Origin: Parcubacteria group bacterium
GTDB lineage: Bacteria > Patescibacteriota > Minisyncoccia > Phycocordibacterales > Phycocordibacteraceae
NCBI GenBank assembly: GCA_028286605.1
Contig: JAQBRE010000007.1
Coordinates: 44,537-108,536, forward strand
Direction of reading: 5' to 3'
DNA: 64,000 nt
The stretch's first letter is position 1; the number at the start of each line of letters is the position of its first letter. This document shows positions 6,001 to 55,715 of this stretch, one piece after another. The notes beneath the pieces are model-generated. The model had not been told where the DNA came from. It did not search any database and worked only from the letters and a program-made list of their open reading frames with translations. The translations under genes and the position numbers were made by a program.

Positions 6001-9000
6001 GGCAGCGGCGTTCTCTCCAACAACACGACTGGTTCTAATAATAATGCCATCGGCAGTCTTACTCTCGTAGGTAATACCACTGGTTCTAATAATAATGCCA
6101 TCGGCAATCTGGCCCTCAACGGCAACACCGGCAACAGCAACAGCGCTCTTGGCGATCAAGCAGGGTCTGTTACTACCGCCGGCAGCCAGAACCTCTTCCT
6201 CGGCGCACAGTCGAACACGATAGGAGCTGGATATATCAGCACCGGCTCCAACAACATCGGCATCGGCTACAACACGCTCTTCCCGAGCGCAACAGCAAGC
6301 AACCAGCTGAACATAGGTAACTTCATATACGGTACGATTGCCGCGACTTCGAGCGCAAGCACTTTCAGCGCGCCGGGTACCGGCCTCCTCGGTATCGGTT
6401 CCTCGACGCCAGGCTCGCTCCTTTCTATCGGCAACACGAACGGCATCAACTTCTCGACAGCGACTTCAACGTTCTCTTCAACGGGAGGTATCAACCTCAC
6501 GAACGGTTGTTACGCAGTAAACGGTGTCTGTGTCGGAACGAACGCAGGAACTGTAACTTCCGTTGACGCATCCGGCGGCACCACCGGCCTCACGTTCAGC
6601 GGCGGCCCTGTTACTACAAGCGGAACACTCGCGCTCGCAGGAACGCTCGTTGTTGCGAACGGTGGTACAGGAAGCACGACCCTTTCAGGTCTCTTGAAAG
6701 GAAACGGAACAGGATCACTCCTTACTGCGATTGCAGGGACCGATTACCTTGCTCCTGGTTCACTTTCTGCAACGTATCCAATTCTTTATTCGGGAAATAA
6801 CTTCTCACTTGCATTCGGTACCACGACTGCAAACTCATGGAGCCAGCTTCAGACGTTCACCTCAGGGTTTGTTTCTCAGGCATCGTCGACAATAACAGGT
6901 GTCCTTAACCTGGGTAACAATGTGAACTTTAACGAAGCAGGTACCACGACGCTTAAGACGCCTGATCAATCGAGCGGCAATATAGGATCGATCTTAATCT
7001 CAACAGGCGCGGTTAGTGGTGTTGCAAACCCGGGGAATATCACGATTATGCCAGGAAACTCGCCTGGCTCTGGGGGTAATGTCCTTATTAAGGGCGGTTC
7101 CGCAGGATTCGGGACGCCTGGAAACGTAACAATACAGCCAGGGATAGGTATTTCGGCTGGATACGCATTACTGGCATCTAACGGAGGCTTAGTAGGTATT
7201 GGTGCAACCACAACTCCTTCGCAGCTTCTTTCGGTGCAGGGCAATGGCCTCTTCTCCGGAAACATCAGTGCGGCGAACCTTACCGCAACAGGTACCGTTA
7301 CAACGGCAAACCTTACACTCGCAGCGCTTAACGGTCCGCTACAAGCGATCAACGGTGTCGTCTCTGCAACGACTTCTATTGGCGTTGTGTATGGCGGTAC
7401 GGGCTCAACGACGCTCACCGGCCTACTGAAGGGAAATGGCACAGGATCACTGCTCTCTGCTGTTGCCGGCACCGACTATCAGGCACCTCTTACGTTCGTG
7501 TACCCGCTTCTCAATAGTGCGAATACTATTAGCCTTGATTTTGGTACAACGACAGCGAATACATGGAGCGGCCTTCAGACCTTCGGTGCCGGTTTCGTTT
7601 CGCAAGCATCATCGACTGTTGCTGGCAACTTCACGGCTACTGGCTTTATCAGTACAAGTGGTACGACTGGCGGCTATCAGATTGACAATCAGCTCTTTGC
7701 GTACGGATCGACGACGAGCGGCGCGGTCGTCCTTGGGTTTGGCGCGGGAGGAGACGCCCTCACCACAGGTACTAGCCCGAACGTTGCTATAGGAAATAAT
7801 GCGCTGCATATCAATAGCGGAGGCACCTCGAACGTCGCCATCGGCTATCAGGCTATGCTTGTTAATCAGACAGGTTCAAGCAATACCGCTATCGGTTCGC
7901 AGGCACTGATCTTTAACCAGACAGGTTCAAGCAATACTGCTATCGGTCAGCAGGCGCTCAACTCTAATACGGTAGGCAGCAACAACGTCGGCATAGGAGC
8001 AAATGCTCTTCAAAACAATACGACAGCTACGAATACGGTCGCGATCGGCGTGTTCGCAGCTGGAGGTTCGGCAGCCTATACAAACCAAGGCGGAACGTAT
8101 GTTGGTTATTCGTCCGGATTCAGCGCGCATAGTTCCTCGGACTACAATTCGTTCTTCGGATATCAGTCTGGCGCGCAGGACACTACCGGAAACGACAACA
8201 TTTTCATTGGCGCACAGCCTAACTTCAGCGGCGCTGGGTATGTGACCACGGGCGCGAACGATATCGGCCTCGGTTTCAATACGCGCTTCCCAAGTGCAAC
8301 GGCAAGCAACCAGCTGAACATCGGTAACTTTATCTATGGAACACTGCCTGCCACCACGACGGCAAGCACCTTCAGCGTACCGACGGCAGGGCATCTCGGT
8401 ATCGGTTCCTCCTCTCCGTATGCAAAGCTTTCGGTCCATGCAAATAATGGGTCGACTGACACGACGCTCTTCTCGATCGGATCTTCCACCGCAAGCTTGA
8501 CGACGACACTCTTGAGCGTTAGCAACACCGGTGTCATCACGTCGAATGCTGCCGCAACCTCGACGTTCACGAACGGTATCGCTCTCACGGGTGGTTGCGT
8601 GAGCGTGAATGGCGCATGTATCGGTGTTGGTTCGGCCGGTACGGTAACCAGCGTTGACGCAGTTGGCGGCACCACCGGCCTCACGTTCAGTGGCGGCCCC
8701 ATTACTTCAAGCGGCGTTCTCACGCTTGCCGGCACCCTTGGTGTTGCGAACGGCGGCACAGGCGCAGTTACACTCACCGGCCTCGTGAAGGGAAACGGTA
8801 CCGGCGCATTCACCGCAGCAGTTGCCGGTACGGACTACCAGGCACCGCTCGCGTTCACGTATCCACTCGTGAATACGGCGAATACGATCTCGCTCGCATT
8901 CGGTACCACGACTGCGAACACGTGGAGCCAGTTGCAGCAGTTCAACGGCGGTGCTTCAACGACGCAGCTCACTGTTACGGGCAGCACCTATCTTGCAACG

Positions 9001-12000
9001 ACTGGAGGGAACGTCGGTGTCGGAACGGCAGCACCAGCATTCAAGCTCGATGTTGCAGGACCAATCAATACGAATATATTCTCGGGTTACTATCAGGGCG
9101 GCCAGCTGCTTGCCTATGCGTCTTCCACGAACGGTGCTACGATCTTCGGCCTTCAGGCAGGCGGACAGAACGCCACCACAAGCGCATCGGCCATCAGCTT
9201 AACGGCAATTGGATTCAAGGCATTGTCCGCAAACACCACCGGTTTCGCCAACACTGGAGTAGGTTTCTCCTCCCTCATTTCTAACACCACCGGTTTCGAC
9301 AACACCGCTTTCGGTATCAGCGCACTCGGCGGCACCACTATTGGCAGCAACAACGTGGCGGTTGGTGCCAGCGCACTCTTTGGAAACGTTTCAGGTACCA
9401 ACAACGTTGCTGTTGGTATTAATGCACTTGGTGCGGATATTTCAGCAACTACCACCGTAGCTGTGGGATCCGGCGCTGGGTGGGGATCGGGTAACTACTC
9501 GAATCAGGGCGGTACGTACCTTGGATATCAAGCAGGAACATTCCTTGCAAACGGCTCAGATTACAACACGCTGCTCGGATATCAGTCTGGTTCGCAGGTT
9601 ACTTCCGGATACGGAAACATCTTGGTGGGACCATCGGTTTCTAGTAACAACCTCACGACAGGTTCAGGCAACATAGGTATCGGATATAACCTTTCTTTCC
9701 CTGCAGCTTCTACGAATAATTATCTCAACATCGGCAGCCTGATCTTCGGCACGCTACCAGCGACGACCACCTCACTGACGGCACCAGTTTCAGGTCTGCT
9801 CGGCATCGGTACCACTTCGCCGTACGCGAAACTCAGCGTCCAAAGCAATAACGGCGACACCGCAACAACGCTCTTCGCGATCGGTTCATCCACCGCATCG
9901 CTTAACAGCACACTGTTCAGTGTCAGCAACACCGGTGTGATCACGTCGAATGCTGCAGCAACGTCAACGTTCACGAACGGTATCGCTCTCACGGGCGGCT
10001 GCGTAAGCGTGAACGGTACCTGTCTTGGTACTGGCAGTGGGGGCGTTACTTCCGTAAACGCAGTCGGCGGCACCACCGGCCTCACGTTCAGTGGCGGGCC
10101 GATTACAAGCTCGGGCACACTCACTCTTGCCGGCACGCTCGGCGTTGCGAATGGCGGCACGGGTTCAACCACGCTCACCGGCCTACTGAAGGGAAATGGC
10201 ACAGGATCACTCCTCACTGCCGTTGCCGGTACGGATTATCTCGCGCCAGGCTCGCTCTCTGCGACGTATCCGATTCTCTACAGTGCTAATAATTTCTCAT
10301 TGGCCTTCGGTACGACGACCGCTAATACATGGTCTTCGCTTCAAACGTTCACTTCAGGACTTATCTCGCAGGCATCCTCAACATTCAGCGGTTCATTGAA
10401 TGTTACGGGCTCTTCGTACTTCGGCGCGAATGTAGGTATCGGTACCACGACTGCAGCACAGCTGCTTACGCTTTCAGCTGCTGATACAAGTACATCGCTG
10501 ATTACGGCAGCACTTGCTTCTGAATCGATCATCAATAGCGATACTACGAACAACAATACTGCGGACCTCGTTTTCAAGACTGCTGATACCGCTGGCGCTA
10601 CCGTTGTTGGTACGAAACTTGCAACAGTCTTCACGTCGCACACGCCGAGCGGCGTCTCAGCTGATCTTGCATTCATAACCCGAAACGCAGGCACGCTCTC
10701 TGAGAAGCTGCGTCTCACGGCTGCCGGTAATCTCGGTGTCGGCACTACCACGCCTTCACAGGCACTCTCTGTTCAGGGTAATGGTCTCTTCTCTGGAAAC
10801 ATAAGTTCAGCGAACGTTACCGCTACCGGTACTATCACGACACCTAATCTCACGATCGCAGCGCTTAATGGTCCGCTACAGGCAAACAACGGTGTTGTAT
10901 CCGCAACGACTTCAATTGGAGTGCAGTACGGCGGTACGGGAGCAATCACCCTCACCGGTCTTATAAAGGGAAATGGTACGAGTGCGTTCACCGCAGCAGT
11001 AGCAGGAACGGACTACCAGGCCCCGCTCGCGTTCACGTATCCATTGGTTAATACCACCAACACCATTTCGCTTGCGTTCGGCACGACGACGGCGAACTCA
11101 TGGAACAGTCTCCAGCAATTCAATGGCGGACTGACTGCTTCAACGATCACGACGACAGGCAGTGTCGGTATCGGCACAAGTACTCCTGGTTCACTCCTTT
11201 CTATAGGTACTACGAATGGCATTAACTTCAGTACGGCAACATCAACCTTCAGTTCGACGGGCGGCATCAACCTTACGAATGGATGCTACGCAGTGAACGG
11301 CGTGTGTCTTTCAACGGGCGGCGGTACATTCACCAATACGCTTGCGAATGGCGGTACTGCAACAACTACCTTCTACGCAGGCGGTTTGGTATTTAGCGAC
11401 GGCACGAAGCTTACGCAGGCTTCGGGCTCTGGAGCAAGCATTCTTAGCTGGAACAACACGAACGGATTCCTTGGCATCGGCTCAAGCAGCCCTTCGTATG
11501 CGCTTTCCGTTCAGGGTACCAGCGGCATACGTGTGAAGACCACAACGAACACTGCCGCTGCGCTGGGTATCGAAAACTCACAAGGCACGACAACCCTCCA
11601 GGCCGACACTCTTGATTCAAGCGATTCGATCTTCTCTGTCGCAACCTCTACGGGTAACACGTACTTCTACGTGGGAGCTGGCGGAAACGTAGGTGTCGGC
11701 ACGACCACGCCGCTTTCCGCGCTTGCTATCGGCGGCGCAGGAGGTCTTTCCGTGGGAGCAGACTACAACATCGCAGCGCCAACGAACGGTGCGATCATCG
11801 AAGGCGGGTTAGGTGTCGGCACCACTTCTGTCATGAATAACGACGCGCTTGATGTAAGCGGCGCAGTGTACATCAACGGCACAGGCACCAACCCACTTGC
11901 TCTTTCGGTAGGCGCTACCGCCGCCGCAACCCCGAGCTTCAGCGTAGATCAAAGCGCTGGTATCGGTACGGGTCTCTCCGTAGTAACGAATCTCGTGGGA

Positions 12001-14175
12001 TCAGGAGTTACGCTGCAGGGTCTTTCTAGTGCTGCAAACGAGAACTTTAATATACTCTCGAAGGGAGGCGGTAACATCAAGCTGTTCTCTAACGGAGGTT
12101 CGATTCAGGTTTCAACCGCATTCGGAAGCCAATATACGTTTGCTGCGACTGCTCTTACTATCACCGGCTTCACCGCTGCCGCGAGCGGCAACCACTTCTC
12201 CGTCGTAGGGGGTATCGACACCGCCATCACCGCTGCTACAGAATCGTCTGATGTGTATTTCAACCTTGGTCAGACGCGCACCAACTTATCCAATACTGCT
12301 GTTTCAACTTTCCGAGATTTCCGTATAACGGGCTCGACGCACGCATTCGCTACTGCTGGCGGCGTGATAAACAATGCCGCAGGATTCTCGGTTGACTTGC
12401 CAGATAGCGCCGGCACTAACGCAACGATAAGCACCTCATCAGCTATCTATGTTCCTGGAGGTGCAGTCACGGGTACGGTATCAACAAGTACTGCCGCAAA
12501 CCTTCTTGCCTCGACAGGAGCAACGAATAACTTCGCGCTTACGACGAACGGTCGAGTAGTCCACAGCAGCCTCACTGCCGGTGCTGGCGCAGGATCCGTC
12601 TGTATGAGCGCTACCGGTGAATTGCTCTTCGACAGCGGGGCGAACTGTATCGTGTCCACACCGCTCGCGAAGCACAATATTCATGGCATCTCAGATGCGC
12701 AGGCAGATGAAGTGCTAAGTCTCGACGCTATCCAGTACGACTACAACGACGGAAGCGGTACTCGTTACGGTTTCAATGCATTGCAGGCCGCGAGCATCGA
12801 TCCAACACTCGTGGTTTATGCAGCGTCTGACATACAGGTAGTTGGTGCTGATGGAAATCCTGTAACCGTAGCGAAGGGCCAGCCATATACCTTCGACTAT
12901 GGTCGCTACACGGGCCTTCTTACTGCTGAAGTACAGAAGCAGCAGAAGCAGATAAGCCTGCTTGCAAGCACGACGCTTGCAGCGGCGGCATCCGCAGGCG
13001 CTCCTGCGCCCGTTGCAGCAACCACTCTTTCTGCGAATTCAATCTACACGCAGAGCCTCACTATTAAGGGCAATGCATTCGCGACATCGTTCGTCGCACC
13101 GGCAACGCCGATTACGTTCACGATCGGTTCTACAACGGGCACGCTGCCAAATGAAGTGCTTGCATCAGATGGCAGTGGCGTAGACCTCTATAAGGCAGCG
13201 ACGTATGCAATCACCGGCGTGCAAGCGCTCCAGGCGCAGACGGGCGTGCTCGCGAGCCGTCTTGATGCGGTCGAACTGCGCGTGACGATGCTCGAAGCTG
13301 AAGCGTCGAGTACGCAAGCAGTAGGCAGCGGCACGCTCTCGCTCGCCGGCTTCGAGGATCTGCTCGGCCAGATCGGCGTTATCGTGAAGGACGGCATCGC
13401 GCACTTCACATCGCTCGCCTTCACGAACCTGATATCAGCACCAGCCGCAGACGGTACGTCGGCAGTAGCAACGAGCACGATAGCGATGGGTGATACGCAG
13501 GCAGTAGTGGTAAACAATCTCGCGCATCCGACTTCGGAAATCTTCGTTACCATCACCTCTCCGCTTAATGGAAGCTGGTACATCAGCCAGAAGGGCGAGG
13601 GAAGCTTCACGATCAATCTTTCGAGTCCGCAGACCGCAGACGTGACCTTCGACTACTTCATCGTGCAGACGGAAAAGGGGGCAACGCAGGTCGCGAGCGT
13701 AGCGAGCGCCCCGGTGCAGACGCCTGCGCAGTATCCTGATCAGACACCAGTTGATCCGAGTGCATCAACGACACCTGCAGCATCTACGAATGCACCGACC
13801 ATAACGCTTACCGGCAGTGCCGCAATTGATATCGCGCAGGGTGCTCCATGGACTGACCCGGGTGCAATCGCGCAGGACGCAGCAGGGAAAGATCTTACCG
13901 CGCAGATCGCGGTAACAGGCAGCGTTGATACGAATACTGCAGGCCTGTACACGCTTAACTACTCGGTTGTTGATTCTGCCGGAGCGAGCGCAGGCGTATC
14001 ACGTATCGTGCATGTTTCGGCACCGGTAGTATCAAGCCCACCTGCTGAAACCGCGCCGCCCGCAGACACCTCTGCTCCGGTGCAGACACCTGCATCTGAT
14101 CCAGCTACTCCCGCAGCGTCTGCGCCAAGCCCGGTAACAGCTGACGCGGGCGCTACTCCGTCCACAGGCGGCTAA
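1..14175 (+). CDS. Giant repetitive surface/fibre protein (5' end outside window; >4,700 aa) with C-terminal peptidase-S74-like intramolecular chaperone domain, Ig-like (DUF5011-type) domain and Pro/Ala/Ser-rich tail
   Basis: The reading frame of the ORF at 97..14175 is open back to nt 1. The upstream translation SDYTGYAYIGGTTTRITNIQNYFSTTGGVTKQ has the same G/T/S/A-rich composition, so the gene starts upstream of the window. About 11 recurrences of the motif AGTDY.AP..F.YP.....ISLAFGTTTAN(S/T)WS.LQ(T/Q)F. Five C..NG.C loops. Near the C-terminus, STPLAKHNIHGISDAQADEVLSLDAIQYDYNDGSGTRYGFNALQ...GQPYTFDYGRYTGLL fits the S-x4-K / Y.Y.DGS signature of tail-fibre intramolecular chaperones. This is followed by ITLTGSAAIDIAQGAPWTDPGAIAQDAAGKDLTAQIAVTGSVDTNTAGLYTLNYSVVDSAG (DUF5011-like Ig fold). 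Confidence 0.8.
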   Translation, partial: SDYTGYAYIGGTTTRITNIQNYFSTTGGVTKQMLDESIDAATLSLSGNSSGGGGTTVITGGGGFSGGALSATTGDFSSDVNVDGNFTLAGTLASAGEISAPFFTATSLAATSTLPNIISNSFSIGGDTITDFTGTGLAVVNGKLTATATTSNAFQQGGNIFGTTATLGTQDANPLAFITNNIARMTIDAAGNVTVGTTTSASLLTIGGDTRGDTFTAVGTGTSTLPRLATSALALGNDYVTGFTGNGLAVVGGVLGLAGSNNYFSTTSSDFWLGTKSTSDLAEGSKLYFTNARADARINATTTIGTLTSAPNLGTLSTTLTGIVKATSGVLSSAVAGTDYENPLAFVYPLQRTLNSISLAFGTTTANSWSQLQSFGNITAANATTTTLDATTLGLGNSYFTSLLGSGLQNVGGVLTLDRTGDWTGTFGGQIPSYYLDSANQTGVLAQANGGTGIGSFNPGDILYADNMGTLTTLPVGSTGQVLKIQAGLPQWGVDATVGAGGSDGIFATSSGLVYPLDTSNTLLVGTNATSTTNSIFEVHGQSYFSSKLSIATTTAPVALSVGGSGYFTGGLGVGILNTVAGTLRTSGAADIGGNLIVTGATTLASATSSSFFTSNFGIGSTYFSSLTGAGLLDTAGVLTLDTTGNWAGTFNGHASSFYLDATNLNNFGTPFYTFLHATTTDALAEGVSHLYFTDARADARINATSTIGTLTSAPNLGTVSTSLNGLLKATSGVLSVASAGTDFQAPITASYPVLFSGNNVSLAFSTTTTNSWSSLQTFGAGFVSQASSTVAGPLTVSGAFTIPSVTNALLSSNGSGVVGATTIGNGLAFSANTLSVSTSSLASGFFKQSGNAFGTTAVLGTTDSNALTFITSNTERARFDTSGNFGIGTSSPSQLLSVQGSGLFSGNISAANVTATGSLAVVGVTNTGNEQITGGLGVGVVNTTAGTIVTTGAITTGSQFIGLASDGVSAPSFTWATDITTGIYHAAGNTIGFTTAGVGRAVIDGNGNLGIGSTSPAAKLSVEGNALIHGTATIDGLGSGLVKSTNGLLGLAVAGTDYAAPFTATYPILFSANNLSLAFGTTTANSWSQLQQFNGAASSTQLTVTGNTYLATNAGSVGIGTSSPFTTLGVAGTVFASGNITTTGTLTATALGTHFAVASNNGTLTAPNAFVDTFLNDVSQQSVVTGFFGINTSTGGFYRTLTGTAGQITVANGSGAGGNPTFSLPTAITGVNSITAAASTNLTLASGGSSATSVLLTPNGGGVGIGTTSPSQLLSVQGNGLFSGNIAVANITATGTLATAGITDSGNAQITGGLGVGTVNTTAGTIVTTGAITTGSQFIGLASDAVNTPSFTWAGDLTTGIYHAAGNTIGFTTSGVERARIDGNGFLGLGSTTPSTRLSVEGNALIHGTVTVDGLGSGLVKSTNGTLGLAVAGTDYENPLTFNAPLSRTVNAISISQATVSTNGYLASADFNLFNNKVSSTSLSGASVISYTSGTGVITTTGGTFGGGNYVFPANTSVAGNLIANTIQRVLNTSTQNIGTTSTVVLGAGGTTNIVGGNASFSGAGGNVTLTGGTGIAAGGNIVINAGTGASTGSILLGSTAGFVGIATSTPGSLLSIGGVANFTAATSTLYGSGGINLSAGCFAINGACVGGNTLSFSYPLTLSGTNVSLAFGTTTANTWSALQTFNGGVSASTIITSGAITTGSQFIGLASDGASAPSFTWAGDLTTGIYHAAGNTIGFTTSGVERARIDGNGFLGLGSTTPSTRLSVEGNALIHGTATIDGLGSGLVKSTNGLLGLAVAGTDYLAPGSLSATYPILYSGNNFSLAFGTTTANSWSALQTFNGGASTTQLTSTGSTYLATTGGNVGVGTAAPAFKLDVAGPINTDIFSGYYQGGKLLAYASSTNDDTIFGLGSGGQNATTSAAIKSLTAFGFNALAANTTGNVNNAFGANALAANTTGGGNNAFGANTLTVNISGSLNDAFGNGVLIRNTTGSGNNAIGSGVLSNNTTGSNNNAIGSLTLVGNTTGSNNNAIGNLALNGNTGNSNSALGDQAGSVTTAGSQNLFLGAQSNTIGAGYISTGSNNIGIGYNTLFPSATASNQLNIGNFIYGTIAATSSASTFSAPGTGLLGIGSSTPGSLLSIGNTNGINFSTATSTFSSTGGINLTNGCYAVNGVCVGTNAGTVTSVDASGGTTGLTFSGGPVTTSGTLALAGTLVVANGGTGSTTLSGLLKGNGTGSLLTAIAGTDYLAPGSLSATYPILYSGNNFSLAFGTTTANSWSQLQTFTSGFVSQASSTITGVLNLGNNVNFNEAGTTTLKTPDQSSGNIGSILISTGAVSGVANPGNITIMPGNSPGSGGNVLIKGGSAGFGTPGNVTIQPGIGISAGYALLASNGGLVGIGATTTPSQLLSVQGNGLFSGNISAANLTATGTVTTANLTLAALNGPLQAINGVVSATTSIGVVYGGTGSTTLTGLLKGNGTGSLLSAVAGTDYQAPLTFVYPLLNSANTISLDFGTTTANTWSGLQTFGAGFVSQASSTVAGNFTATGFISTSGTTGGYQIDNQLFAYGSTTSGAVVLGFGAGGDALTTGTSPNVAIGNNALHINSGGTSNVAIGYQAMLVNQTGSSNTAIGSQALIFNQTGSSNTAIGQQALNSNTVGSNNVGIGANALQNNTTATNTVAIGVFAAGGSAAYTNQGGTYVGYSSGFSAHSSSDYNSFFGYQSGAQDTTGNDNIFIGAQPNFSGAGYVTTGANDIGLGFNTRFPSATASNQLNIGNFIYGTLPATTTASTFSVPTAGHLGIGSSSPYAKLSVHANNGSTDTTLFSIGSSTASLTTTLLSVSNTGVITSNAAATSTFTNGIALTGGCVSVNGACIGVGSAGTVTSVDAVGGTTGLTFSGGPITSSGVLTLAGTLGVANGGTGAVTLTGLVKGNGTGAFTAAVAGTDYQAPLAFTYPLVNTANTISLAFGTTTANTWSQLQQFNGGASTTQLTVTGSTYLATTGGNVGVGTAAPAFKLDVAGPINTNIFSGYYQGGQLLAYASSTNGATIFGLQAGGQNATTSASAISLTAIGFKALSANTTGFANTGVGFSSLISNTTGFDNTAFGISALGGTTIGSNNVAVGASALFGNVSGTNNVAVGINALGADISATTTVAVGSGAGWGSGNYSNQGGTYLGYQAGTFLANGSDYNTLLGYQSGSQVTSGYGNILVGPSVSSNNLTTGSGNIGIGYNLSFPAASTNNYLNIGSLIFGTLPATTTSLTAPVSGLLGIGTTSPYAKLSVQSNNGDTATTLFAIGSSTASLNSTLFSVSNTGVITSNAAATSTFTNGIALTGGCVSVNGTCLGTGSGGVTSVNAVGGTTGLTFSGGPITSSGTLTLAGTLGVANGGTGSTTLTGLLKGNGTGSLLTAVAGTDYLAPGSLSATYPILYSANNFSLAFGTTTANTWSSLQTFTSGLISQASSTFSGSLNVTGSSYFGANVGIGTTTAAQLLTLSAADTSTSLITAALASESIINSDTTNNNTADLVFKTADTAGATVVGTKLATVFTSHTPSGVSADLAFITRNAGTLSEKLRLTAAGNLGVGTTTPSQALSVQGNGLFSGNISSANVTATGTITTPNLTIAALNGPLQANNGVVSATTSIGVQYGGTGAITLTGLIKGNGTSAFTAAVAGTDYQAPLAFTYPLVNTTNTISLAFGTTTANSWNSLQQFNGGLTASTITTTGSVGIGTSTPGSLLSIGTTNGINFSTATSTFSSTGGINLTNGCYAVNGVCLSTGGGTFTNTLANGGTATTTFYAGGLVFSDGTKLTQASGSGASILSWNNTNGFLGIGSSSPSYALSVQGTSGIRVKTTTNTAAALGIENSQGTTTLQADTLDSSDSIFSVATSTGNTYFYVGAGGNVGVGTTTPLSALAIGGAGGLSVGADYNIAAPTNGAIIEGGLGVGTTSVMNNDALDVSGAVYINGTGTNPLALSVGATAAATPSFSVDQSAGIGTGLSVVTNLVGSGVTLQGLSSAANENFNILSKGGGNIKLFSNGGSIQVSTAFGSQYTFAATALTITGFTAAASGNHFSVVGGIDTAITAATESSDVYFNLGQTRTNLSNTAVSTFRDFRITGSTHAFATAGGVINNAAGFSVDLPDSAGTNATISTSSAIYVPGGAVTGTVSTSTAANLLASTGATNNFALTTNGRVVHSSLTAGAGAGSVCMSATGELLFDSGANCIVSTPLAKHNIHGISDAQADEVLSLDAIQYDYNDGSGTRYGFNALQAASIDPTLVVYAASDIQVVGADGNPVTVAKGQPYTFDYGRYTGLLTAEVQKQQKQISLLASTTLAAAASAGAPAPVAATTLSANSIYTQSLTIKGNAFATSFVAPATPITFTIGSTTGTLPNEVLASDGSGVDLYKAATYAITGVQALQAQTGVLASRLDAVELRVTMLEAEASSTQAVGSGTLSLAGFEDLLGQIGVIVKDGIAHFTSLAFTNLISAPAADGTSAVATSTIAMGDTQAVVVNNLAHPTSEIFVTITSPLNGSWYISQKGEGSFTINLSSPQTADVTFDYFIVQTEKGATQVASVASAPVQTPAQYPDQTPVDPSASTTPAASTNAPTITLTGSAAIDIAQGAPWTDPGAIAQDAAGKDLTAQIAVTGSVDTNTAGLYTLNYSVVDSAGASAGVSRIVHVSAPVVSSPPAETAPPADTSAPVQTPASDPATPAASAPSPVTADAGATPSTGG
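5411..6843 (+). repeat. Intragenic near-identical nucleotide repeats in the giant gene. Example: 5411..5514 and 6740..6843 are about 94% identical. Other families recur at about 2840-3110, 3970-4240 and 5090-5360, and at 8560-8790 and 9950-10180
   Basis: Direct comparison of sequence lines. The coding text ccgattaccttgctcctggttcactttctgcaacgtatccaattctttattcgggaaataacttctcacttgcattcgg occurs twice. Confidence 0.8.
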
Positions 14176-26933: not shown

Positions 26934-26945
26934 CGATAGTAAGGA

Positions 26946-26984
26946 GGACGCCCGTCAGGCATTGCCTGACGGGCGTCCTTTTGG
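26946..26984 (+). terminator. Rho-independent terminator
   Basis: ggacgcccgtcagg-cattg-cctgacgggcgtcc followed by ttttgg. Confidence 0.7.
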
Positions 26985-26999
26985 TATAGTCATTCCACT

Positions 27000-27254
27000 A
27001 TGAAGAAAGACATCCACCCAGCCGATTACCGCACTGTGATGTTCGAGGACATGTCCTCGGGCGCGGTGTTCCTTATCGGTTCGACCATCCACACGAAAGA
27101 AACCGGCACACATGAGGGAAAGGAGTACCCGAAGGTTGTCGTTGAAATCTCCAGCAAGTCTCACCCGTTCTACACCGGTGAAGACCGTACGCTCGACAAG
27201 ACAGGACGTGTTGAGAAGTTCAAGCAGCGTGTCGCTGCAGCGAAGAATAAGTAA
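27000..27254 (+). CDS. rpmE: 50S ribosomal protein L31 (non-zinc type)
   Basis: [17 protein letters not shown] ... [24 protein letters not shown] matches the L31 family. Confidence 0.9.
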
Positions 27255-27256
27255 GG

Positions 27257-27342
27257 CAAAAGGCTGGGAATAGCTTCTCTCGCGTCCTCGCCTCGGGCCC
27301 TGCACGGCTCCGGGCGCTGCGAGAACTATTCCCAGCCTTTTG
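27257..27342 (+). promoter_or_regulatory. Long imperfect hairpin element A, 3 nt after the rpmE stop (outer stem 17 bp perfect; conserved core ..CTGCACGG.TCCG.GCGCTGCG.GAA)
   Basis: The 5' arm caaaaggctgggaatag (27257-27273) pairs perfectly with ctattcccagccttttg (27326-27342). Its core is shared with element B at 29095-29179. Confidence 0.55.
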
Positions 27343-27367
27343 TGTTGATATACTTCGAGCAACAACC

Positions 27368-28324
27368 ATGATTGAGTACTCATCTGATTTTAAGGCGAAT
27401 CACAAAACCGCGTACTTGGCGGAGGAGTTTGAGCGTCTGGAGGCAGAACGAAGTAGCGGAAGAGAAGCGGCAGGGGAGGACGCGGTGCTGCGTGAGATGG
27501 CTGCAGAAGATGAGGACCGTATTGATGCGCGGCAGAAGGAGATTCTCGGAACCATCGAGGATATTTTGAATAAGGATAAGGAGGAAGAAAGCTTGCCGAA
27601 GGCCGTGGTGTTGGAATTCCGTGCTGGCGCTGGCGGCGATGAAGCGACGTTGTTCGCTCAAGAGCTGAAGGAGATGTACCAGAAGTACGCAGAAGCGAAG
27701 GGTTGGCCAGTACGCGTTATAGATGAGCTCACGATCGAAGTGAGCGGAACGAAAGCGTATGAGGCGCTTCGGTACGAAACTGGCGTGCATCGCGTGCAGC
27801 GCGTTCCACAAACGGAAAAATCCGGACGTATACACACTTCAACTGCATCGGTCGCTTCGCTCCCTATTCGCACGAAGCCGAAGTTCGAGATCAACCCTAC
27901 GGATATCGAGATGGAATTCTCGCGCTCCGGCGGCGCAGGCGGCCAGAACGTGAACAAGGTGGAGTCTGCGGTGCGTCTCATTCACAAGCCGACGGGTATA
28001 GATGTTCGCTCAACGAGCGAACGCTCGCAGCTGAACAACCGCCTTAAGGCTATGGAAATCCTTTCCGCGAAGCTCGAAGCTATCTATGAGGAAGAAGAGG
28101 CAAAGAAGCACGCGGATATGCGCTCAGGCCAGATCGGTACGGGCGACCGCTCCGAGAAGATCCGCACCTATAACTTTCTGCAGGATCGCATCACGGATCA
28201 CCGCTTGAAAGAGTCCTGGCATAACCTGCCTAAAATCATGCTCGGAAACCTCGATCCTATCGTTGAGGCCCTTCAGGCTGCCGCAGCGAACGGGGGAGTG
28301 GGCGCTGCTGAGGATGCTGAGTAA
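27368..28324 (+). CDS. prfA: Peptide chain release factor 1
   Basis: GGQ motif ([25 protein letters not shown]) and the RF1-type PQT tripeptide ([13 protein letters not shown]). Confidence 0.9.
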
Positions 28325-28387: not shown

Positions 28388-29089
28388 ATGACTACCGATA
28401 CATCGGCTGGGCCTGGCGTTGACGCTCTCTTTGCAGCGGGCGCTCACTTTGCCCAGGTGAAAAGCCGTCGCCACCCAACTATGAAGCCGTTCGTCCTTGG
28501 CTCTAAGAGCAAGGTTGAGATCTTCGATCTCGTTAAGACCGATGCACAGCTTGCAGCGGCTAAGACCGCTATCGCGGCGCTCGCACGCGACGGCAAGACC
28601 ATCCTCTTCGTCGGCGGCAAGCGCGAAGTATCCGATCAGGTTCGTGAAGCAGCGAAGCGCATCGGACAGCCGTATGTTGCTGGTCGCTGGCTCGGCGGCA
28701 CTATCTCTAACTTCGTAGAGATCAAGAAGCGTATCGACCGCCTTGCAGACCTCACCGAGAAGCGCTCTACTGGCGAACTCAGCAAGCTCTACACGAAGCT
28801 CGAGCGCGTCTACATCGACCGCGAAATCGACCGTCTCACTGAGCGCCTCGACGGTATCCGCAACCTCGCGAAGCGTCCTGACGCTATGGTTATCGTAGAC
28901 ACGAAGGCTGAGGCACACGCTTCTAAGGAAGCGAAGGATGCAGGCATTCCTGTTATCGGCATCATGAGCTCGGATTGCGATATCCACGATGCTGCATTCC
29001 CTATAGTCACTAATGACGCTTCACGCGCAACGGTGACTCTCGTTCTTCAGGAACTCACGAACGCGTTCGAAGTCGGTCAGAAGGGATAG
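28388..29089 (+). CDS. rpsB: 30S ribosomal protein S2
   Basis: AGAHFAQVKSRRHPTMKPFVLGSKSKVEIFDL ... LFVGGKRE ... RWLGGTISNF matches the S2 family. Confidence 0.95.
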   Translation: MTTDTSAGPGVDALFAAGAHFAQVKSRRHPTMKPFVLGSKSKVEIFDLVKTDAQLAAAKTAIAALARDGKTILFVGGKREVSDQVREAAKRIGQPYVAGRWLGGTISNFVEIKKRIDRLADLTEKRSTGELSKLYTKLERVYIDREIDRLTERLDGIRNLAKRPDAMVIVDTKAEAHASKEAKDAGIPVIGIMSSDCDIHDAAFPIVTNDASRATVTLVLQELTNAFEVGQKG

Positions 29090-29094
29090 ATAGC

Positions 29095-29179
29095 AGGAAG
29101 CTCTGAGTAGCTTCCCTCGCGTGCTCACCTCGAGTACCTGCACGGTTCCGCGCGCTGCGGGAACTACTCAGAGCTTCCT
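29095..29179 (+). promoter_or_regulatory. Long imperfect hairpin element B, 6 nt after the rpsB stop, homologous to element A with compensatory stem changes
   Basis: The 5' arm aggaagctctgagtag (29095-29110) pairs perfectly with ctactcagagcttcct (29164-29179). The inner core cctcgcgtgctcacctcgagtacctgcacggttccgcgcgctgcgggaa is about 85% identical to A. Confidence 0.55.
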
Positions 29180-29218: not shown

Positions 29219-29800
29219 ATGGAAATCACTACCGAAATGCTCAAAACTCTCCGTGACAAAACGGGAGTATCAGTAATGCAGTGCAAGAAAGCTTTGGAAG
29301 AGGCAGAGGGAGATATTGATAAGGCTGAGGTTATCCTGCGCAAGCGCTCGAGCTCTGCCGCAGAGAAGAAGGGAGATCGCGAGCTCGGTGCAGGTGCTAT
29401 CGGTTCCTACGTACACGGCGGCGAGATCGGCGCTATGGTGCTTCTTTCCTGCGAGACGGACTTCGTTGCACGTAACCCAGAATTCCCTGCGCTCGCTCGC
29501 GAAATCGCGATGCAGATCGCCGCTTCTGATCCGAAGTACCTGAACGAGGCAGACATCGCTCCTGAGGCTGTAACAGCCGCTAAGGCGGTCTTTACTGCAG
29601 AGGTGCAGGACAAGCCCGCAGACATGCAGGAGAAGATCCTCGAGGGCAAGATGGCTTCGTATTTCAAGGACATGGTCCTCATGAATCAGACATACATCAA
29701 GGATGATTCTAAGAGCGTGAAGGACCTCATCACGGAGGCTTCACAGAAGTTCGGCGAGCGCGTCGAGATCACGAAGTACGCGCGCTTCAGCGCGCGCTAG
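29219..29800 (+). CDS. tsf: Elongation factor Ts (short form)
   Basis: EITTEMLKTLRDKTGVSVMQCKKALEEAEGDIDKAEVILRK matches the UBA-like N-terminal domain of EF-Ts. Confidence 0.9.
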   Translation: MEITTEMLKTLRDKTGVSVMQCKKALEEAEGDIDKAEVILRKRSSSAAEKKGDRELGAGAIGSYVHGGEIGAMVLLSCETDFVARNPEFPALAREIAMQIAASDPKYLNEADIAPEAVTAAKAVFTAEVQDKPADMQEKILEGKMASYFKDMVLMNQTYIKDDSKSVKDLITEASQKFGERVEITKYARFSAR

Positions 29801-35504: not shown

Positions 35505-37592
35505 ATGGCTAAGGAAGGCGCTAAAACGACTAAAAAAGTCGCTGCTAAGAGCAGCGACTATGACGCGTCCTCTATCAGCGTGCTCGAGGGTCTCGACCCG
35601 GTCCGCAAGCGCCCGGGCATGTACATCGGTACTACGGGCCCTGATGGTCTCCACCACCTTATCTGGGAAATCTTCGATAACTCGCGCGACGAAGCCATGG
35701 GCGGTTTCGCGAACGATATCGAGATCGCGCTGCTTCCGGGCGGCTATGTTCGCGTCGTCGATAACGGCCGCGGCATTCCGGTAGGCATCCATCCGAAGAC
35801 GAAAGTATCAGCGCTCGAGACTATCATGACGACGCTGCATGCAGGCGGCAAGTTCGGCGGCGAGGATTCCGGATACAAGGTATCCGGCGGTCTTCATGGC
35901 GTGGGTGCATCCGTGGTGAACGCGCTCTCGGAGCACGCGAAGGTGATTGTGCACAAGGACGGCCTCACGCACATGCAGGAATACAAGATCGGCAAGCAGA
36001 TGGCGAAAGTGAAGCAGATCGGAAAGACCAAGCACAACGGTACCGTCACGTTCTTCAAGCCGGATGTCACTATCTTCAAGGACGGCATCAGCTGGAACTG
36101 GGACAAGATCGTGAGCCATGTGCGCCAGCAGGCGTACTTGGTGAAGGGAACACGCATCTGCGTGATTGATGCCCGCGAAGCGGGCATGGTGGATTCTGAA
36201 GATGTTGCGTATGTTCGCGAGCTGAACCTTGAAGTTCCTTCGATGACCTTCTTCTTCGAAGGCGGTCTTCGTTCGCTCATCGCGTTCTATAACAAGCACC
36301 AGACGCCAGCGCACAAGAATATCTTTTACGTCGATGCAACCGATAACGAAGTAATGGTGGAAGTCGCGTTCCAGTATACGGATGACATCTCGCCGCGCCT
36401 TCTTGCCTTTGCGAATAATATTTATAATCCAGAGCTTGGCACACACGTAACCGGTTTCAAGACTGCGCTTACGCGTACGCTCAATACCTACGCACGCACT
36501 TCAGGAATCCTGAAAGAAAGCGAAGAGAATTTCACGGGTGACGACGTGCTCGAAGGTATCACTGCCGTGGTTTCCGTTAAGATGCCCGAGATTCAGTTCG
36601 AAGGACAGACGAAAGGAAAGCTGGGTTCCGTTGAGGCGCAGGGCGCCGTAGCGACCGTGTTCGGCGGCGCACTCACCACCTTCCTCGAAGAGAATCCAGA
36701 AGACGGTCGCGCTATCGTGAACAAAGTATTGCTCGCGCTCAAGGCTCGCAAAGCGGCAAAAGCGGCGAAGGACTCCGTCCTTCGCAAGGGCGCCCTCGAG
36801 GGCATGACCCTTCCGGGCAAGCTCGCAGACTGTCAGACAAAAGACCCTGCAGAGTCAGAGATTTTCATCGTAGAGGGAGATTCGGCAGGAGGTTCGGCAA
36901 AGACCGGCCGTGACCGTCGCACCCAGGCAATTCTGCCACTTCGCGGCAAGATTCTGAACATCGAGCGCGCACGTCTCGATAAGATGCTCGCGTCCGAGCA
37001 GATCAAGAACCTCGTCGTCGCTATGGGAACCGCTATCGGCGATATCTTCGACCTTTCCAAGCTCCGCTACCACAAGATCATCATCGCGACTGACGCTGAC
37101 GTGGACGGCGCACACATTCGTACGCTCCTGCTTACGCTCTTCTATCGCCACTTCCGCCCGATCATCGATGGCGGCTTCATATACATCGCCCAGCCACCGC
37201 TCTACAAGATCAAGCGCGGAAAGGAAGTCATGTACGCCTATTCAGACCAGGAGAAATTCCAGCTGCTCGGCCCTGATGCAGATATGGCCGTAGACGCCGG
37301 CGAAGAAGAGCAGGGAACCGATGAAGACCCGGAAGGCGAGACTCCCGAGCAGGAGGTTACGACCAAGAAGGGCGCCAAGGTTTCTATTCAGCGATACAAG
37401 GGTCTCGGTGAGATGAACCCGGACGAGCTTTGGGAGACCACCATGAACCCTGCGAACCGCGTCCTTAAGCGCGTAACCGTTGAAGACGCTACCGATGCAG
37501 ATCGCATCTTCGACATCCTCATGGGTTCCGATGTGCCTTCTCGCAAGTCCTTCATCCAGAGCAACGCGAAGCTCGCGAACCTCGACGTCTAA
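35505..37592 (+). CDS. gyrB: DNA gyrase subunit B
   Basis: ISVLEGLDPVRKRPGMYIGTTGPDGLHHLIWEIFDNSRDEAMGG (GHKL ATPase N-terminus), a TOPRIM EGDSAGGS motif, and a C-terminal QRYKGLGEMNP. Confidence 0.95.
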   Translation: MAKEGAKTTKKVAAKSSDYDASSISVLEGLDPVRKRPGMYIGTTGPDGLHHLIWEIFDNSRDEAMGGFANDIEIALLPGGYVRVVDNGRGIPVGIHPKTKVSALETIMTTLHAGGKFGGEDSGYKVSGGLHGVGASVVNALSEHAKVIVHKDGLTHMQEYKIGKQMAKVKQIGKTKHNGTVTFFKPDVTIFKDGISWNWDKIVSHVRQQAYLVKGTRICVIDAREAGMVDSEDVAYVRELNLEVPSMTFFFEGGLRSLIAFYNKHQTPAHKNIFYVDATDNEVMVEVAFQYTDDISPRLLAFANNIYNPELGTHVTGFKTALTRTLNTYARTSGILKESEENFTGDDVLEGITAVVSVKMPEIQFEGQTKGKLGSVEAQGAVATVFGGALTTFLEENPEDGRAIVNKVLLALKARKAAKAAKDSVLRKGALEGMTLPGKLADCQTKDPAESEIFIVEGDSAGGSAKTGRDRRTQAILPLRGKILNIERARLDKMLASEQIKNLVVAMGTAIGDIFDLSKLRYHKIIIATDADVDGAHIRTLLLTLFYRHFRPIIDGGFIYIAQPPLYKIKRGKEVMYAYSDQEKFQLLGPDADMAVDAGEEEQGTDEDPEGETPEQEVTTKKGAKVSIQRYKGLGEMNPDELWETTMNPANRVLKRVTVEDATDADRIFDILMGSDVPSRKSFIQSNAKLANLDV

Positions 37593-37599
37593 GAGATAA

Positions 37600-37636
37600 A
37601 AAGAAACCGCCCTCCTAGGAGGGCGGTTTCTTTTTA
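37600..37636. terminator. Bidirectional rho-independent terminator
   Basis: aaagaaaccgccctcc-tagga-gggcggtttcttttt lies between convergent gyrB and the - strand gene. Confidence 0.8.
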
Positions 37637-37640
37637 TCTC

Positions 37641-38429
37641 TTACTGAATCGTGATGCTTGAAGCGGCGCTGTTGTTCGCTTCGCTCGATTCGCTTACGAG
37701 ATTGTTCGGGTCAACCGTAACGGTAAGAGTGCGATTACCGGTCTGTGCCTGATTGAAGCCGAGCGTGTATTCGATGTGCTCGCCCGGGCGCAGCGACTGC
37801 TGAGGATTCGAATTGTACGTGAAGGTATTCGAAGTAGGGAGGGTGGCTTTGAAAGTCCACGTGCCGCTGATGTTCGTACCGACGTTCGTAACACTGAACT
37901 TCACTGCTGCATTGTCACCGCGAGGAACCGAAGTGCCTGCAACGAAATCATCCGTCGAGTTTCCTGTAAGGAATCCCGTCTGAGTAATCGTAACGGCGAG
38001 GTCGGGCTGGCCATAGAGGGGTGCGGTAGACGCACCGCCTGCATTGATGGTCGTGGTCGTCTTAGGACCTGCGTTCGTTGCTACCGGTGTACCGGTGTTT
38101 CCTAGAAGAGGAGAGGTGACCGTCGTACTCGTTGCGTTCGCAAGAGTGGTAGAAGCCGTCGTGGTCGCCGCAAAAGAGACCGTCTGAGGAACGACCGTGA
38201 GGTCGGTCTTCTTCGCCGGTTCGAATACCTGTGAAAGGTACACGGCTGCAGATCCGACGCGGCTGACAGCTGCAGGGACAAAACGCGCTGAATAAATAGC
38301 GAGCATGATACCGAGCAGGATAAGCGTGATAAAGCCCACGACCGCGAGGCCGTGCACTGCCGCCATCCGACGCGGGTTGCGAGTGATCGTTGTCTTTGTC
38401 GTCATTTCCATATGCCTAGTATGTACCAC
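37641..38429 (-). CDS. N-terminally membrane-anchored CARDB-like domain protein
   Basis: TM helix LAVVGFITLILLGIMLAIYSA, a Thr-rich linker, and a C-terminal PDLAVTITQ...VTNVG...LRPGEH...VTVDPNNLVSESSEANN that matches the CARDB-type adhesion-domain pattern. Confidence 0.55.
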   Translation of the reverse strand: MVHTRHMEMTTKTTITRNPRRMAAVHGLAVVGFITLILLGIMLAIYSARFVPAAVSRVGSAAVYLSQVFEPAKKTDLTVVPQTVSFAATTTASTTLANATSTTVTSPLLGNTGTPVATNAGPKTTTTINAGGASTAPLYGQPDLAVTITQTGFLTGNSTDDFVAGTSVPRGDNAAVKFSVTNVGTNISGTWTFKATLPTSNTFTYNSNPQQSLRPGEHIEYTLGFNQAQTGNRTLTVTVDPNNLVSESSEANNSAASSITIQ

Positions 38430-42667: not shown

Positions 42668-42685
42668 GAGAATTAACATAAAGTA

Positions 42686-42724
42686 AAAGGAAAGAGCCCG
42701 CTTCGCGGGCTCTTTCCTTTTTAT
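42686..42724 (+). terminator. Rho-independent terminator
   Basis: aaaggaaagagcccgc-ttc-gcgggctctttccttttt. Confidence 0.8.
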
Positions 42725-50193: not shown

Positions 50194-50215
50194 TTAGAGA
50201 AGAGCACAGCAAAAA

Positions 50216-50270
50216 AATAAAAGAGGGTAAGACTTGGCCGAGCGGCCCGGAGCGCCCTCTTTTATTTTTG
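50216..50270 (+). terminator. Terminator hairpin after rpmF
   Basis: aaaagagggtaagacttggccgagcggcccggagcgccctctttt followed by atttttg. Confidence 0.6.
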
Positions 50271-50289: not shown

Positions 50290-50324
50290 ACAACGCCGCG
50301 CCATTGCGCGGCGTTGTTGTTTGC
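50290..50324 (+). terminator. Second perfect hairpin plus U-tract, 30 nt upstream of the nusB start (possible attenuator)
   Basis: acaacgccgcgc-cat-tgcgcggcgttgt followed by tgtttg. Confidence 0.55.
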
Positions 50325-51285: not shown

Positions 51286-51290
51286 ATAAA

Positions 51291-51318
51291 AGAAAAACGA
51301 CCTTTCGGCCGTTTTTCT
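51291..51318. terminator. Bidirectional terminator-like hairpin
   Basis: aaaaacgacc-tttc-ggccgttttt. Confidence 0.55.
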
Positions 51319-51405
51319 CGATCCCTCCGCTCTATAGAGCGAGTGCATCCCTCATCGCTTACGATTATATTCCCCTCACCTTATCGCGTCAACACACCAT
51401 AGGTT

Positions 51406-51478
51406 GTGCCGGTGGAGGGACTTGAACCCTCAGAGGGATCTTGATGAGGGACGCCTCCGCAACCTGCCACCGACTGGG
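51406..51478 (-). other. tRNA-like T-arm plus acceptor element (non-canonical tRNA, tRNA remnant or tRNA-like ncRNA)
   Basis: The minus-strand RNA reads gtcggtg...gaggg-ttcaagt-ccctc-caccggc-a. There is a perfect T-stem with a T-loop-like TTCAAGT and a 7-bp acceptor pairing (one G-U). The span is only about 68 nt and I could not fold a D arm or anticodon arm. Confidence 0.3.
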
Positions 51479-51574
51479 GAAGGTTAGCAAAAAGGTGTTC
51501 AAGGAGTCTTAAACAAAAGATACAGAAATCCTGAACTCTGGTAATTATTCGATTTTTATATAGGCTACAGGTAT

Positions 51575-55684: not shown

Positions 55685-55715
55685 GAAAAGGCCCGCTACG
55701 CGGGCCTTTTCTTAT
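55684..55715. terminator. Bidirectional rho-independent terminator (overlaps the rnr stop)
   Basis: aagaaaaggcccgc-tacg-cgggccttttctt. Confidence 0.8.

Follow-up and report, generated by a model that had tools for sequence, protein, structure and literature searches.

The DNA analysed here, called the window throughout, is a stretch of 64,000 nucleotides from a Parcubacteria group bacterium (contig JAQBRE010000007.1), and the homologs of its prfA gene place it in Parcubacteria/Paceibacterota, close to Parcubacteria bacterium C7867-007/-008. Two long hairpins, named elements A and B, stand directly behind the ribosomal-protein genes rpmE and rpsB, and each encloses a copy of the same segment, termed core A; these features, together with a third terminator with a large loop and two ribonuclease genes, are the following:

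27000 to 27254, plus strand: rpmE (ribosomal protein L31; Pfam PF01197, E 1.8e-24)
27257 to 27273, plus strand: element A, 5' arm of the outer stem P1, CAAAAGGCTGGGAATAG, with an A-tract at its start; 100% complementary to 27326-27342
27274 to 27325, plus strand: core A, copy 1, 52 nt (RNAalifold consensus and pair counts, n = 5 distinct copies)
27326 to 27342, plus strand: element A, 3' arm of P1, CTATTCCCAGCCTTTTG, with UUUU near its end
27338 to 27347, plus strand: U-rich tail of element A, UUUUGUGUUG, overlapping the stem in part (read from the sequence)
27346 to 27354, plus strand: TGATATACT, possible extended -10 promoter of prfA (picked out by eye)
27368 to 28324, plus strand: prfA (peptide chain release factor 1, RF1; homologs with PF03462 and PF00472)
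28388 to 29089, plus strand: rpsB (ribosomal protein S2; Pfam PF00318, E 4.4e-59)
29095 to 29110, plus strand: element B, 5' arm of the outer stem, 16 nt, perfect
29111 to 29163, plus strand: core A, copy 2, 53 nt, 83% identical to copy 1 (covariance model R1, 90.2 bits)
29164 to 29179, plus strand: element B, 3' arm of the outer stem, with the weak U-rich tail CUUCCUUACGUUCG (from the sequence)
29219 to 29800, plus strand: tsf (EF-Ts; Pfam PF00889), downstream of element B
50213 to 50269, plus strand: module D hairpin, the third loaded terminator, after rpmF (L32, 49843-50193), with a 15-bp perfect stem and a 27-nt core
51575 to 52264, plus strand: rnc (RNase III; Pfam PF14622, PF00636, PF00035), a candidate enzyme for long hairpins
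55712 to 57715, minus strand: RNase R (3'-5' exoribonuclease; Pfam PF00773, E 1.3e-107)

Element A (27257-27342, 86 nt; outer stem CAAAAGGCTGGGAATATTCCCAGCCTTTTG) is made of 17-nt perfect arms around a 52-nt core and ends 25 nt ahead of the prfA start. The 17-bp perfect outer stem and the 52-nt interior quoted by an earlier reading of this DNA, made from its letters alone (the sequence-only reading), are exact; the spacing of 3 nt after rpmE given there shortens to 2 nt (gg) between stop codon and stem. Perfect 17-bp inverted repeats whose arms are no more than 100 nt apart are expected about 4e-4 times per 64 kb by chance. The second copy which that reading had announced behind rpsB, with a different and again self-complementary outer stem, is present as well: element B (29095-29179) begins 5 nt past the rpsB stop codon, upstream of tsf, its 16-bp perfect stem is built of arms unrelated to those of element A, and the two cores agree at 44 of 53 positions (83%). 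The core pattern proposed at the same time matches only these two elements in the window and finds nothing in 100 shuffles. The predicted minimum free energies are -58.9 kcal/mol for element A and -50.5 kcal/mol for element B (folding z = -7.6 and -5.1, respectively; 0/200 shuffles fold as well); both strands of the elements fold equally well, so that the energy gives no strand assignment and does not single out the sense RNA.

Terminators of the window and its relatives

The orthologous regions of relatives, designated by locus numbers below, were fetched by exact-protein look-up, those numbered L018 to L031 coming from the assemblies of samples ERZ27310481, ERZ27274783, SRR32635010 and JGI 3300055517. 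The plain terminators of the window, at least nine in number, are perfect palindromes of 11-27 bp with loops of 0-9 nt, typically AAAAGG...CCTTTT followed by more T, and the stem of element A, CAAAAGG...CCTTTTG followed by TGTTG, has the same form. Three relatives (L012, L015 and L024) have simple canonical terminators only, in both the rpmE-prfA and the rpsB-tsf spacers; a plain terminator of the relatives reads, for example, ACGAGAGGTCCTGTCT-c-AGACAGGACCTCTCGT, followed by a T-rich stretch. The ortholog of element A in L028 carries U6 after its stem, which differs from the element A stem by two compensatory changes. A stable stem-loop directly downstream of the gene is found in element A (17 bp) as in element B (16 bp); the tail comprises, in A, the UUUU of the stem end followed by GUGUUG and, in B, the weakly U-rich CUUCCUUACGUUCG. 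Two statements of the sequence-only reading, namely that no strong U-tract follows and that the structure is not a standard intrinsic terminator, are to be revised accordingly: a U-rich tail is present at element A (27338-27347), the outer stem has the palindromic form of the plain terminators, and canonical terminators occupy the orthologous sites of relatives. Where a terminator would have a short loop of 3-8 nt, a structured core of 52-53 nt is found here, and it is because of this core that a consensus terminator scan misses both elements. Elements A and B appear, on comparison of the sequences, to be the intrinsic terminators of rpmE and rpsB, with the small loop replaced by a conserved module. 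The module D hairpin is the only other terminator of the window with a large loop, and the three terminators so loaded all follow ribosomal-protein genes, compared with 0/9 of the other genes' terminators (Fisher P = 0.005-0.014).

The perfection of the palindromes extends to the whole lineage: in the window (e.g. 37590-37643, 42685-42721 and 55678-55718) and in all related loci the terminators are almost always perfect palindromes, keeping perfect pairing over 11-27 bp and loops of 0-9 nt while their sequence turns over among species, a pattern suggestive of strong selection or, alternatively, of templated mutation from one arm to the other. A case of its own is the terminator 5' of rpmE (26945-26979), whose apex CAGGCAtTGCCTG is kept in the window, L012, L015, L019, L025 and L028, while its lower stem varies by compensatory substitutions and the palindrome is still perfect; since the rpmE promoter predicted there (TTGCCT-17-TATAGT with TG) overlaps it with its -35 region, the terminator could double as an operator. 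Extended -10 motifs of the TGnTAnnnT type (26982-26999 and 27346-27367) precede the starts of rpmE and prfA by only 10-13 nt, directly past the preceding terminator; the one ahead of rpmE (TG-TATAGT) was called by the promoter scan, and the prfA candidate is analogous to it. Because these motifs sit so close to the starts, their position implies very short or absent leaders for rpmE and prfA and, probably, one transcription unit per gene.

Fold and conservation of core A

Five distinct copies of the core, from four related Parcubacteria genomes, were compared, namely those of elements A and B (winA and winB) and those of L018 (L018-B), L028 and L031. In the consensus, helix P2 (27275-27279 with 27321-27325; 5 bp, UUCUC/GAGAA) is followed by P3 (27281-27287 with 27312-27317 and 27319; 7 bp, GCGUSC/GSGCGC), which includes a U·G pair (U27285·G27314) invariant in all five copies; an asymmetric internal loop UC/UCC (27288-27289 / 27309-27311), equally invariant (5/5), separates P3 from P4 (27290-27292 with 27306-27308), a helix of 3 bp which occurs in four Watson-Crick forms (GCC/GGC, GAC/GUC, ACC/GGU and GGA/UCC). 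The apical loop (27293-27305, UCGGGCCCUGCAC) measures 13-14 nt across copies, and its CCUGCA tract is again the same in 5/5. A pseudoknot of this tract with the 3' end of rpmE was considered and rejected, the partner sequence being missing at rpsB.

Over the five copies 94.7% of cells are paired in the consensus structure and 11 of the 23 pairs have changed on both sides, while none of 500 shuffles reaches any of the five measures employed and slid controls are paired to 35-51%; eight of the covarying pairs fall in the P1-P3 helix and include terminator-stem pairs that any terminator would preserve. The covariance model built on these copies (R1) scores the core of element A at 94.7 bits. An alternative 5-bp apical helix, mutually exclusive with the P4 model, performs nearly as well (88% of cells paired). 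P1 and P2 together amount to a near-continuous duplex of 22-23 bp with one bulge, and core A is modelled as an irregular hairpin (P2-P3-P4) stacked coaxially on the terminator stem in a rod-like arrangement; resting on five distinct sequences from one narrow clade, the structure is a lead and not an established class.

A duplex of this length recalls RNase III processing sites such as the R sites of phage T7 or the NEMIS hairpins, and cleavage could in principle tune the rpmE/prfA and rpsB/tsf messages. The near-continuous P1+P2 helix, with its conserved bulges and internal loop, reaches the length of at least about 22 bp asked of such a site, and RNase III is encoded in the window as in all relatives examined, where its gene lies beside nusB. 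The sequence-only reading was right in placing RNase III in this DNA, although its "nearby" does not hold, rnc being 22-24 kb off and not adjacent to the elements. Yet the plain perfect terminators of 17-27 bp in the same genome would be equal or better substrates, which leaves the core superfluous, and the conservation of the loop sequence exceeds what RNase III is known to require. We regard a dedicated processing site as improbable, even though RNase III has been proposed to act on the RNAs of NEMIS hairpins (PMC2229807).

In the 290-nt nusB-rnc spacer (51286-51574) a tRNA-like fold was noticed on the minus strand (51408-51474), with the acceptor stem GUCGGUGG/CCACCGGC and the T arm GAGGG-UUCAAGU-CCCUC; neither ARAGORN nor the Rfam tRNA model calls it, and its only match is a sub-threshold one (23 bits) to the tRNA-like mascRNA model; it may represent an unusual tRNA or a degenerate one.

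The two mutually exclusive apical helices, each with some support, bring to mind a domain sensing a ligand or a protein, which would act in the manner of the HMP-PP (thiS) element or as a mimic used in ribosomal-protein autoregulation and would switch the read-through towards prfA and tsf. The nesting of a conserved core within a terminator stem resembles the layout of a terminator-embedded aptamer (PMC6478431), and translation-factor genes follow immediately downstream. The genes at the rpmE locus nevertheless have apparent extended -10 promoters of their own just past the hairpin (found by scan for rpmE and by eye for prfA), the same site in relatives is empty or holds a different module, one core stands behind two different ribosomal-protein genes and so fits no single-protein mimic, and no Rfam family matches; a sensing domain is considered very improbable.

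The hairpin, which the sequence-only reading took to be conserved and repeated, is indeed so: orthologous and related cores were found in relatives, with identities of 74-88% across copies, while at the four-fold degenerate sites of rpmE and prfA, the genes on either side, the carriers share only 24-68% identity. For the orthologous pair winA and L028, 45 of 52 positions match (binomial P = 1.6e-4 against the higher neutral estimate), and for winA and L031 the corresponding P is 5e-6. Nine alignment columns differ between winA and L028: six of them make up three compensatory pairs (in P1, P2 and P4), the remaining three are unpaired, and no pair is broken. Copies within one genome (83%) are no more alike than copies from different genomes (74-88%), which disfavours ongoing homogenisation; the non-orthologous winA and L018-B are 88% identical, the orthologous winB and L018-B 81%. 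To judge from these comparisons, core A appears to be under purifying selection in place, its sequence and structure being kept far beyond neutral expectation, with no sign of continuing homogenisation. Since all terminators of the lineage stay perfect palindromes, templated mutation could mimic compensatory change without selection.

Filled, empty and swapped sites

In relatives, core A was found after rpsB in L018-L023 and after rpmE in L028-L030 and in L031. The five full copies all lie in sense orientation, 0-5 nt past the stop codon of rpmE or rpsB, and the tie to ribosomal-protein genes perceived by the sequence-only reading is thereby borne out. The site after rpmE exists in three states, filled with core A (window, L028, L031), filled with an unrelated insert, module C (L018, L025), or empty (L012, L015, L024), and these states do not agree with the prfA tree. 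One and the same stem base, TAGAAAAGCC/GGCTTTTCTA, encloses core A in L031 and core C in L018; similarly, in L015 and L012 the stem ACGAGAGGTsCTGT holds no core, and in L025 it holds core C. The only same-stem pair of empty and filled sites (L015 and L025) concerns module C; for core A, the relatives examined supplied no empty site of matching outer stem. Since identical terminator stems are found empty, filled with core A or filled with module C, the cores are best read as exchangeable inserts, core A having apparently entered its terminator stem by insertion. Core A is not essential, as close relatives do without it and one site has module C in its place.

A TA dinucleotide is placed one base outside the core on the 3' side in all five full units and on the 5' side in four of five, the 5' dinucleotide of L018-B being TG; the flanks take the forms ATA-G/core/C-TAT, CATA-C/core/G-TATG and AGTA-G/core/C-TACT. 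They are such as a TA target duplication would leave and, TA being self-complementary, they equal those of plain stem pairing.

The rplY terminator of L025 (5822-5882) has a 20-bp perfect stem and a 21-nt loop which, read as its reverse complement, corresponds to the 3' half of core A (TTCTCGCAGCGCCCaGAGC); this loop looks like an internally deleted, inverted remnant of core A.

Other modules were observed in the clade. Module C (L018:9873-9976; L025:9878-9979) is an insert of 58-60 nt that forms a three-way junction within the rpmE terminator and has no match in Rfam; its copies are 90% identical, compared with about 50-60% at four-fold sites, and three compensatory changes fall in its two hairpins. 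The core of module D consists of a GGCC-GARC-GGCC hairpin and CGGAGCG inside an A/T-rich stem; it recurs in L032 (8583-8664), nested there in an additional 16-bp stem, while in L036 the hairpin is wholly missing and only the second, plain terminator (window 50290-50317) stays. A kinship of core A with cores C or D comes down to an 8-13 nt GC-rich quasi-palindromic motif and was rejected as unconvincing. Family E is a repeat of about 95 nt with a conserved hairpin, CGTACTatgAGTACG, at its centre and with outer stems that are A/T-rich and variable. One genome has four copies of it (L031:1022-1135; L038:2898-3008, 10362-10475 and 11510-11625), all in sense orientation, which stand behind rplY, rpmF, nusB and a gene without a name; the 12-bp stem enclosing one of these copies runs over the stop codon of nusB. 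As family E shares the layout and follows nusB and an unnamed gene too, nested hairpins are a wider habit of the clade and not strictly bound to ribosomal-protein genes. Behind the SMC gene of L038 (15127-15185), a 15-bp perfect stem carries a 29-nt loop with CGCCTGCAC, which recalls the apical CCUGCAC of core A and may be a coincidence.

Searches for further copies gave the following results. The covariance model from the five copies finds none in 229 kb (window and related loci), nor any beyond elements A and B in the 64-kb window with filters off. The genome-wide search for the core pattern that the sequence-only reading had called for returned only chance matches: for CTGCACGGNTCCGNGCGCTGCG there were 10 in 185,579 species genomes, all single, in GC-rich genomes and with the rest of the core absent, and two in the JGI metagenome contigs, a collection evidently devoid of the JGI contigs that bear the element. 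No viral contig matched any of four patterns drawn from cores A, C and E, the phage collection contained no match, and the plasmid collection yielded weak partial chance matches (E at least 0.2, at most 52% of the query). The six reading frames of the element, compared with the protein database for spurious ORFs over the element elsewhere, gave no match. In Rfam, only tRNA-Thr passes in the window, the best models for the element being miRNA-type hairpins at 25 bits against an 80-bit cutoff; on L025, L031, L032 and L038 nothing relevant appears at gathering or permissive thresholds. The core A module is absent from Rfam and from every collection scanned. A DNA-uptake sequence (the element is too long and too rare) and a small ORF (no start codon and no conserved frame) were discarded as candidates. 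Neither a transposase domain nor, in particular, a Y1 transposase (RAYT) was found with Pfam among the window ORFs scanned, 55 in number with the giant repeat ORF left out. The latter, at 97-14175, is a single ORF of 4,692 codons whose interior consists of numerous diverged direct repeats, in families of 35-300 nt; it probably encodes a giant surface protein.

Two of the candidates put forward by the sequence-only reading, an RNA-stability or processing element and a REP-like palindromic unit, are still the leading explanations. We favour, with a probability of roughly 0.45, the view that core A is an RNA module of the terminator apex which arrived by insertion and would now be kept for work in the 3' ends of ribosomal-protein mRNAs. 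The outer stem and the U-rich tail would be the terminator proper of rpmE and rpsB, and core A, in place of the usual small loop, would make the terminator hairpin longer and more stable. It would be retained through its action in RNA, as a 3'-end structure of ribosomal-protein mRNAs, its conserved unpaired bases being read by a trans-acting factor, such as an RNA-binding protein or a ribonuclease (e.g. RNase III), which might set the lifetime of the mRNA or the transcriptional read-through; RNase III and RNase R are the encoded enzymes that such a 3' structure would meet, the second of the kind blocked by a 3' hairpin.

The main rival explanation, which we consider a serious though lesser possibility, is that core A is selfish, non-autonomous DNA similar to MITEs or Correia elements, which inserts at the central TA of palindromic terminators without serving the host; the recognition needs of a transposase and recent spread would then account for the conservation of the core, and the outer stems would be the invaded terminators. 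Core A indeed occurs at non-homologous loci (rpmE, rpsB), in addition to the deleted reverse remnant in the rplY terminator of L025, but every full copy is sense-oriented behind a ribosomal-protein gene. The TA flanks are those of a target duplication (5/5 on the 3' side, 4/5 on the 5' side), but the self-complementarity of TA makes a duplication indistinguishable from stem pairing; stems and cores combine freely, and core A, core C and the empty state are patchily distributed at the orthologous rpmE site across the prfA tree, yet the same-outer-stem empty site is missing for core A. Other small nested-hairpin repeat families are present in relatives, family E with 4 copies in 34 kb; the copy number of core A is, however, very low (2 in 64 kb, none extra in 229 kb), which argues against a purely selfish repeat, and no transposase domain is found among the 55 ORFs mentioned above. 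Finally, in favour of this rival, the non-orthologous winA and L018-B are at least as similar as the orthologous winB and L018-B, but orthologous cores are 81-87% identical with compensatory changes where four-fold sites are near saturation, and their unpaired bases are conserved in place; inert inserts would decay. Against the favoured role in RNA there is, conversely, the reverse orientation of the core remnant in the rplY loop of L025, which suggests insertion at the DNA level regardless of transcription.

A broader proposal may also be formulated, doubtful as it is: modules A, C, D and perhaps E would be interchangeable, independently folding units that home to terminator apices, preferentially those of ribosomal-protein genes, and are then selected, forming a 3'-UTR regulon in which a shared factor that reads conserved loops such as CCUGCA would co-ordinate the stability or read-through of ribosomal-protein mRNAs. 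If true, homing to the terminator apex would be an insertion specificity not described before in miniature elements.

If core A acts in RNA, it would be a rare conserved bacterial element of the 3'-UTR or terminator-embedded kind, linked to ribosomal-protein genes, in the Candidate Phyla Radiation, whose minimal genomes have almost no known regulatory RNA. If it is mobile, the apex of a terminator palindrome would be a landing site that permits spread with minimal harm, and this would explain the elaborate terminator tips. On either reading, the filled, empty and swapped terminators of close relatives constitute a natural experiment on the decoration tolerated by an intrinsic terminator.

Comparison with known systems

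With intrinsic terminators, elements A and B share the position directly past a stop codon, the G+C-containing stem between an A-tract and a U-tract, and the plain terminators of relatives at the orthologous sites; they differ in the conserved 52-nt substructure that takes the place of a loop of 3-8 nt, and in the weakly U-rich tail of copy B.

IS1397 and ISKpn1 insert into the loops of palindromic units, and the landing place of group IIC introns lies past the terminator, not at its apex. Both are examples of mobile DNA landing on an intergenic hairpin or terminator and giving nested structures, as seems to be the case for core A, but they are kilobase-sized autonomous elements or ribozymes, and nothing of the sort is present here. 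Group IIC introns are known to home to terminators (PMC4748821).

Bacterial MITEs typically have TA termini, fold into long stem-loops and measure about 100-200 bp (PMC2229807). The Correia/NEMIS, RUP and ERIC repeats resemble core A in many respects: they are small, non-coding and repeated at unrelated intergenic sites, their transcripts form long stem-loops, TA stands at the ends of the units, filled and empty sites are found among relatives, and a link to RNase III and an effect on the expression of neighbouring genes have been proposed (PMC2229807). In MITEs, however, the conserved terminal inverted repeats lie outside and copies usually number tens to hundreds, whereas in core A the conserved part is inside and the variable outer arms belong to the terminator of the host. 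The ends of the core, (G)CTTCTC...GAGAA(C), do form imperfect inverted repeats, equal to P2/P3, and the outer arms vary from locus to locus. With a unit of 52-60 nt, a very low copy number and no partner transposase or insertion sequence seen, core A falls outside MITEs in size and in abundance.

REPs are 20-40 bp long, present in high copy and headed by GTAG or CGTC (PMC3733652). The REP/BIME units served by RAYT transposases are likewise imperfect palindromes that lie outside genes, at their 3' ends, and for which roles in termination and mRNA stabilisation have been proposed (PMC3733652, PMC3333891). A GTAG tag adjoins the palindrome in copy B (GAGTAG/C), but in the other copies of core A the tag is ATAG, ATAA, ATAC or TGAA, and a unit of 52-60 nt at low copy departs from REPs in size, tag and copy number alike; as for the REP-like unit proposed by the sequence-only reading, the behaviour is not that of a high-copy REP, there being two copies in the 64-kb window and no further one in the 229 kb searched.

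The HMP-PP (thiS) riboswitch offers the parallel of a conserved RNA core nested in the stem-loop of an intrinsic terminator, but it is a 5' leader in which ligand binding controls the downstream gene (PMC6478431), whereas the element with core A closes the gene ahead of it, relatives can do without the core, and Rfam has no match to it. The PeSL cassettes of T4-type phages are, similarly, intergenic units of terminator hairpin and promoter shuffled between genomes (PMC2839356), much as whole hairpin units vary among these close relatives around genes that keep their places; the PeSLs mediate the exchange of flanking genes in phages, while here the genes are syntenic and only the apex of the hairpin changes.

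Core A shares features with intrinsic terminators, with the palindromic repeats of the MITE and REP kinds and with terminator-embedded RNA domains, and it departs from REPs and MITEs in the properties that define them; the outer stem has the form of an ordinary terminator of the lineage, and what is new is the structured core at its apex.
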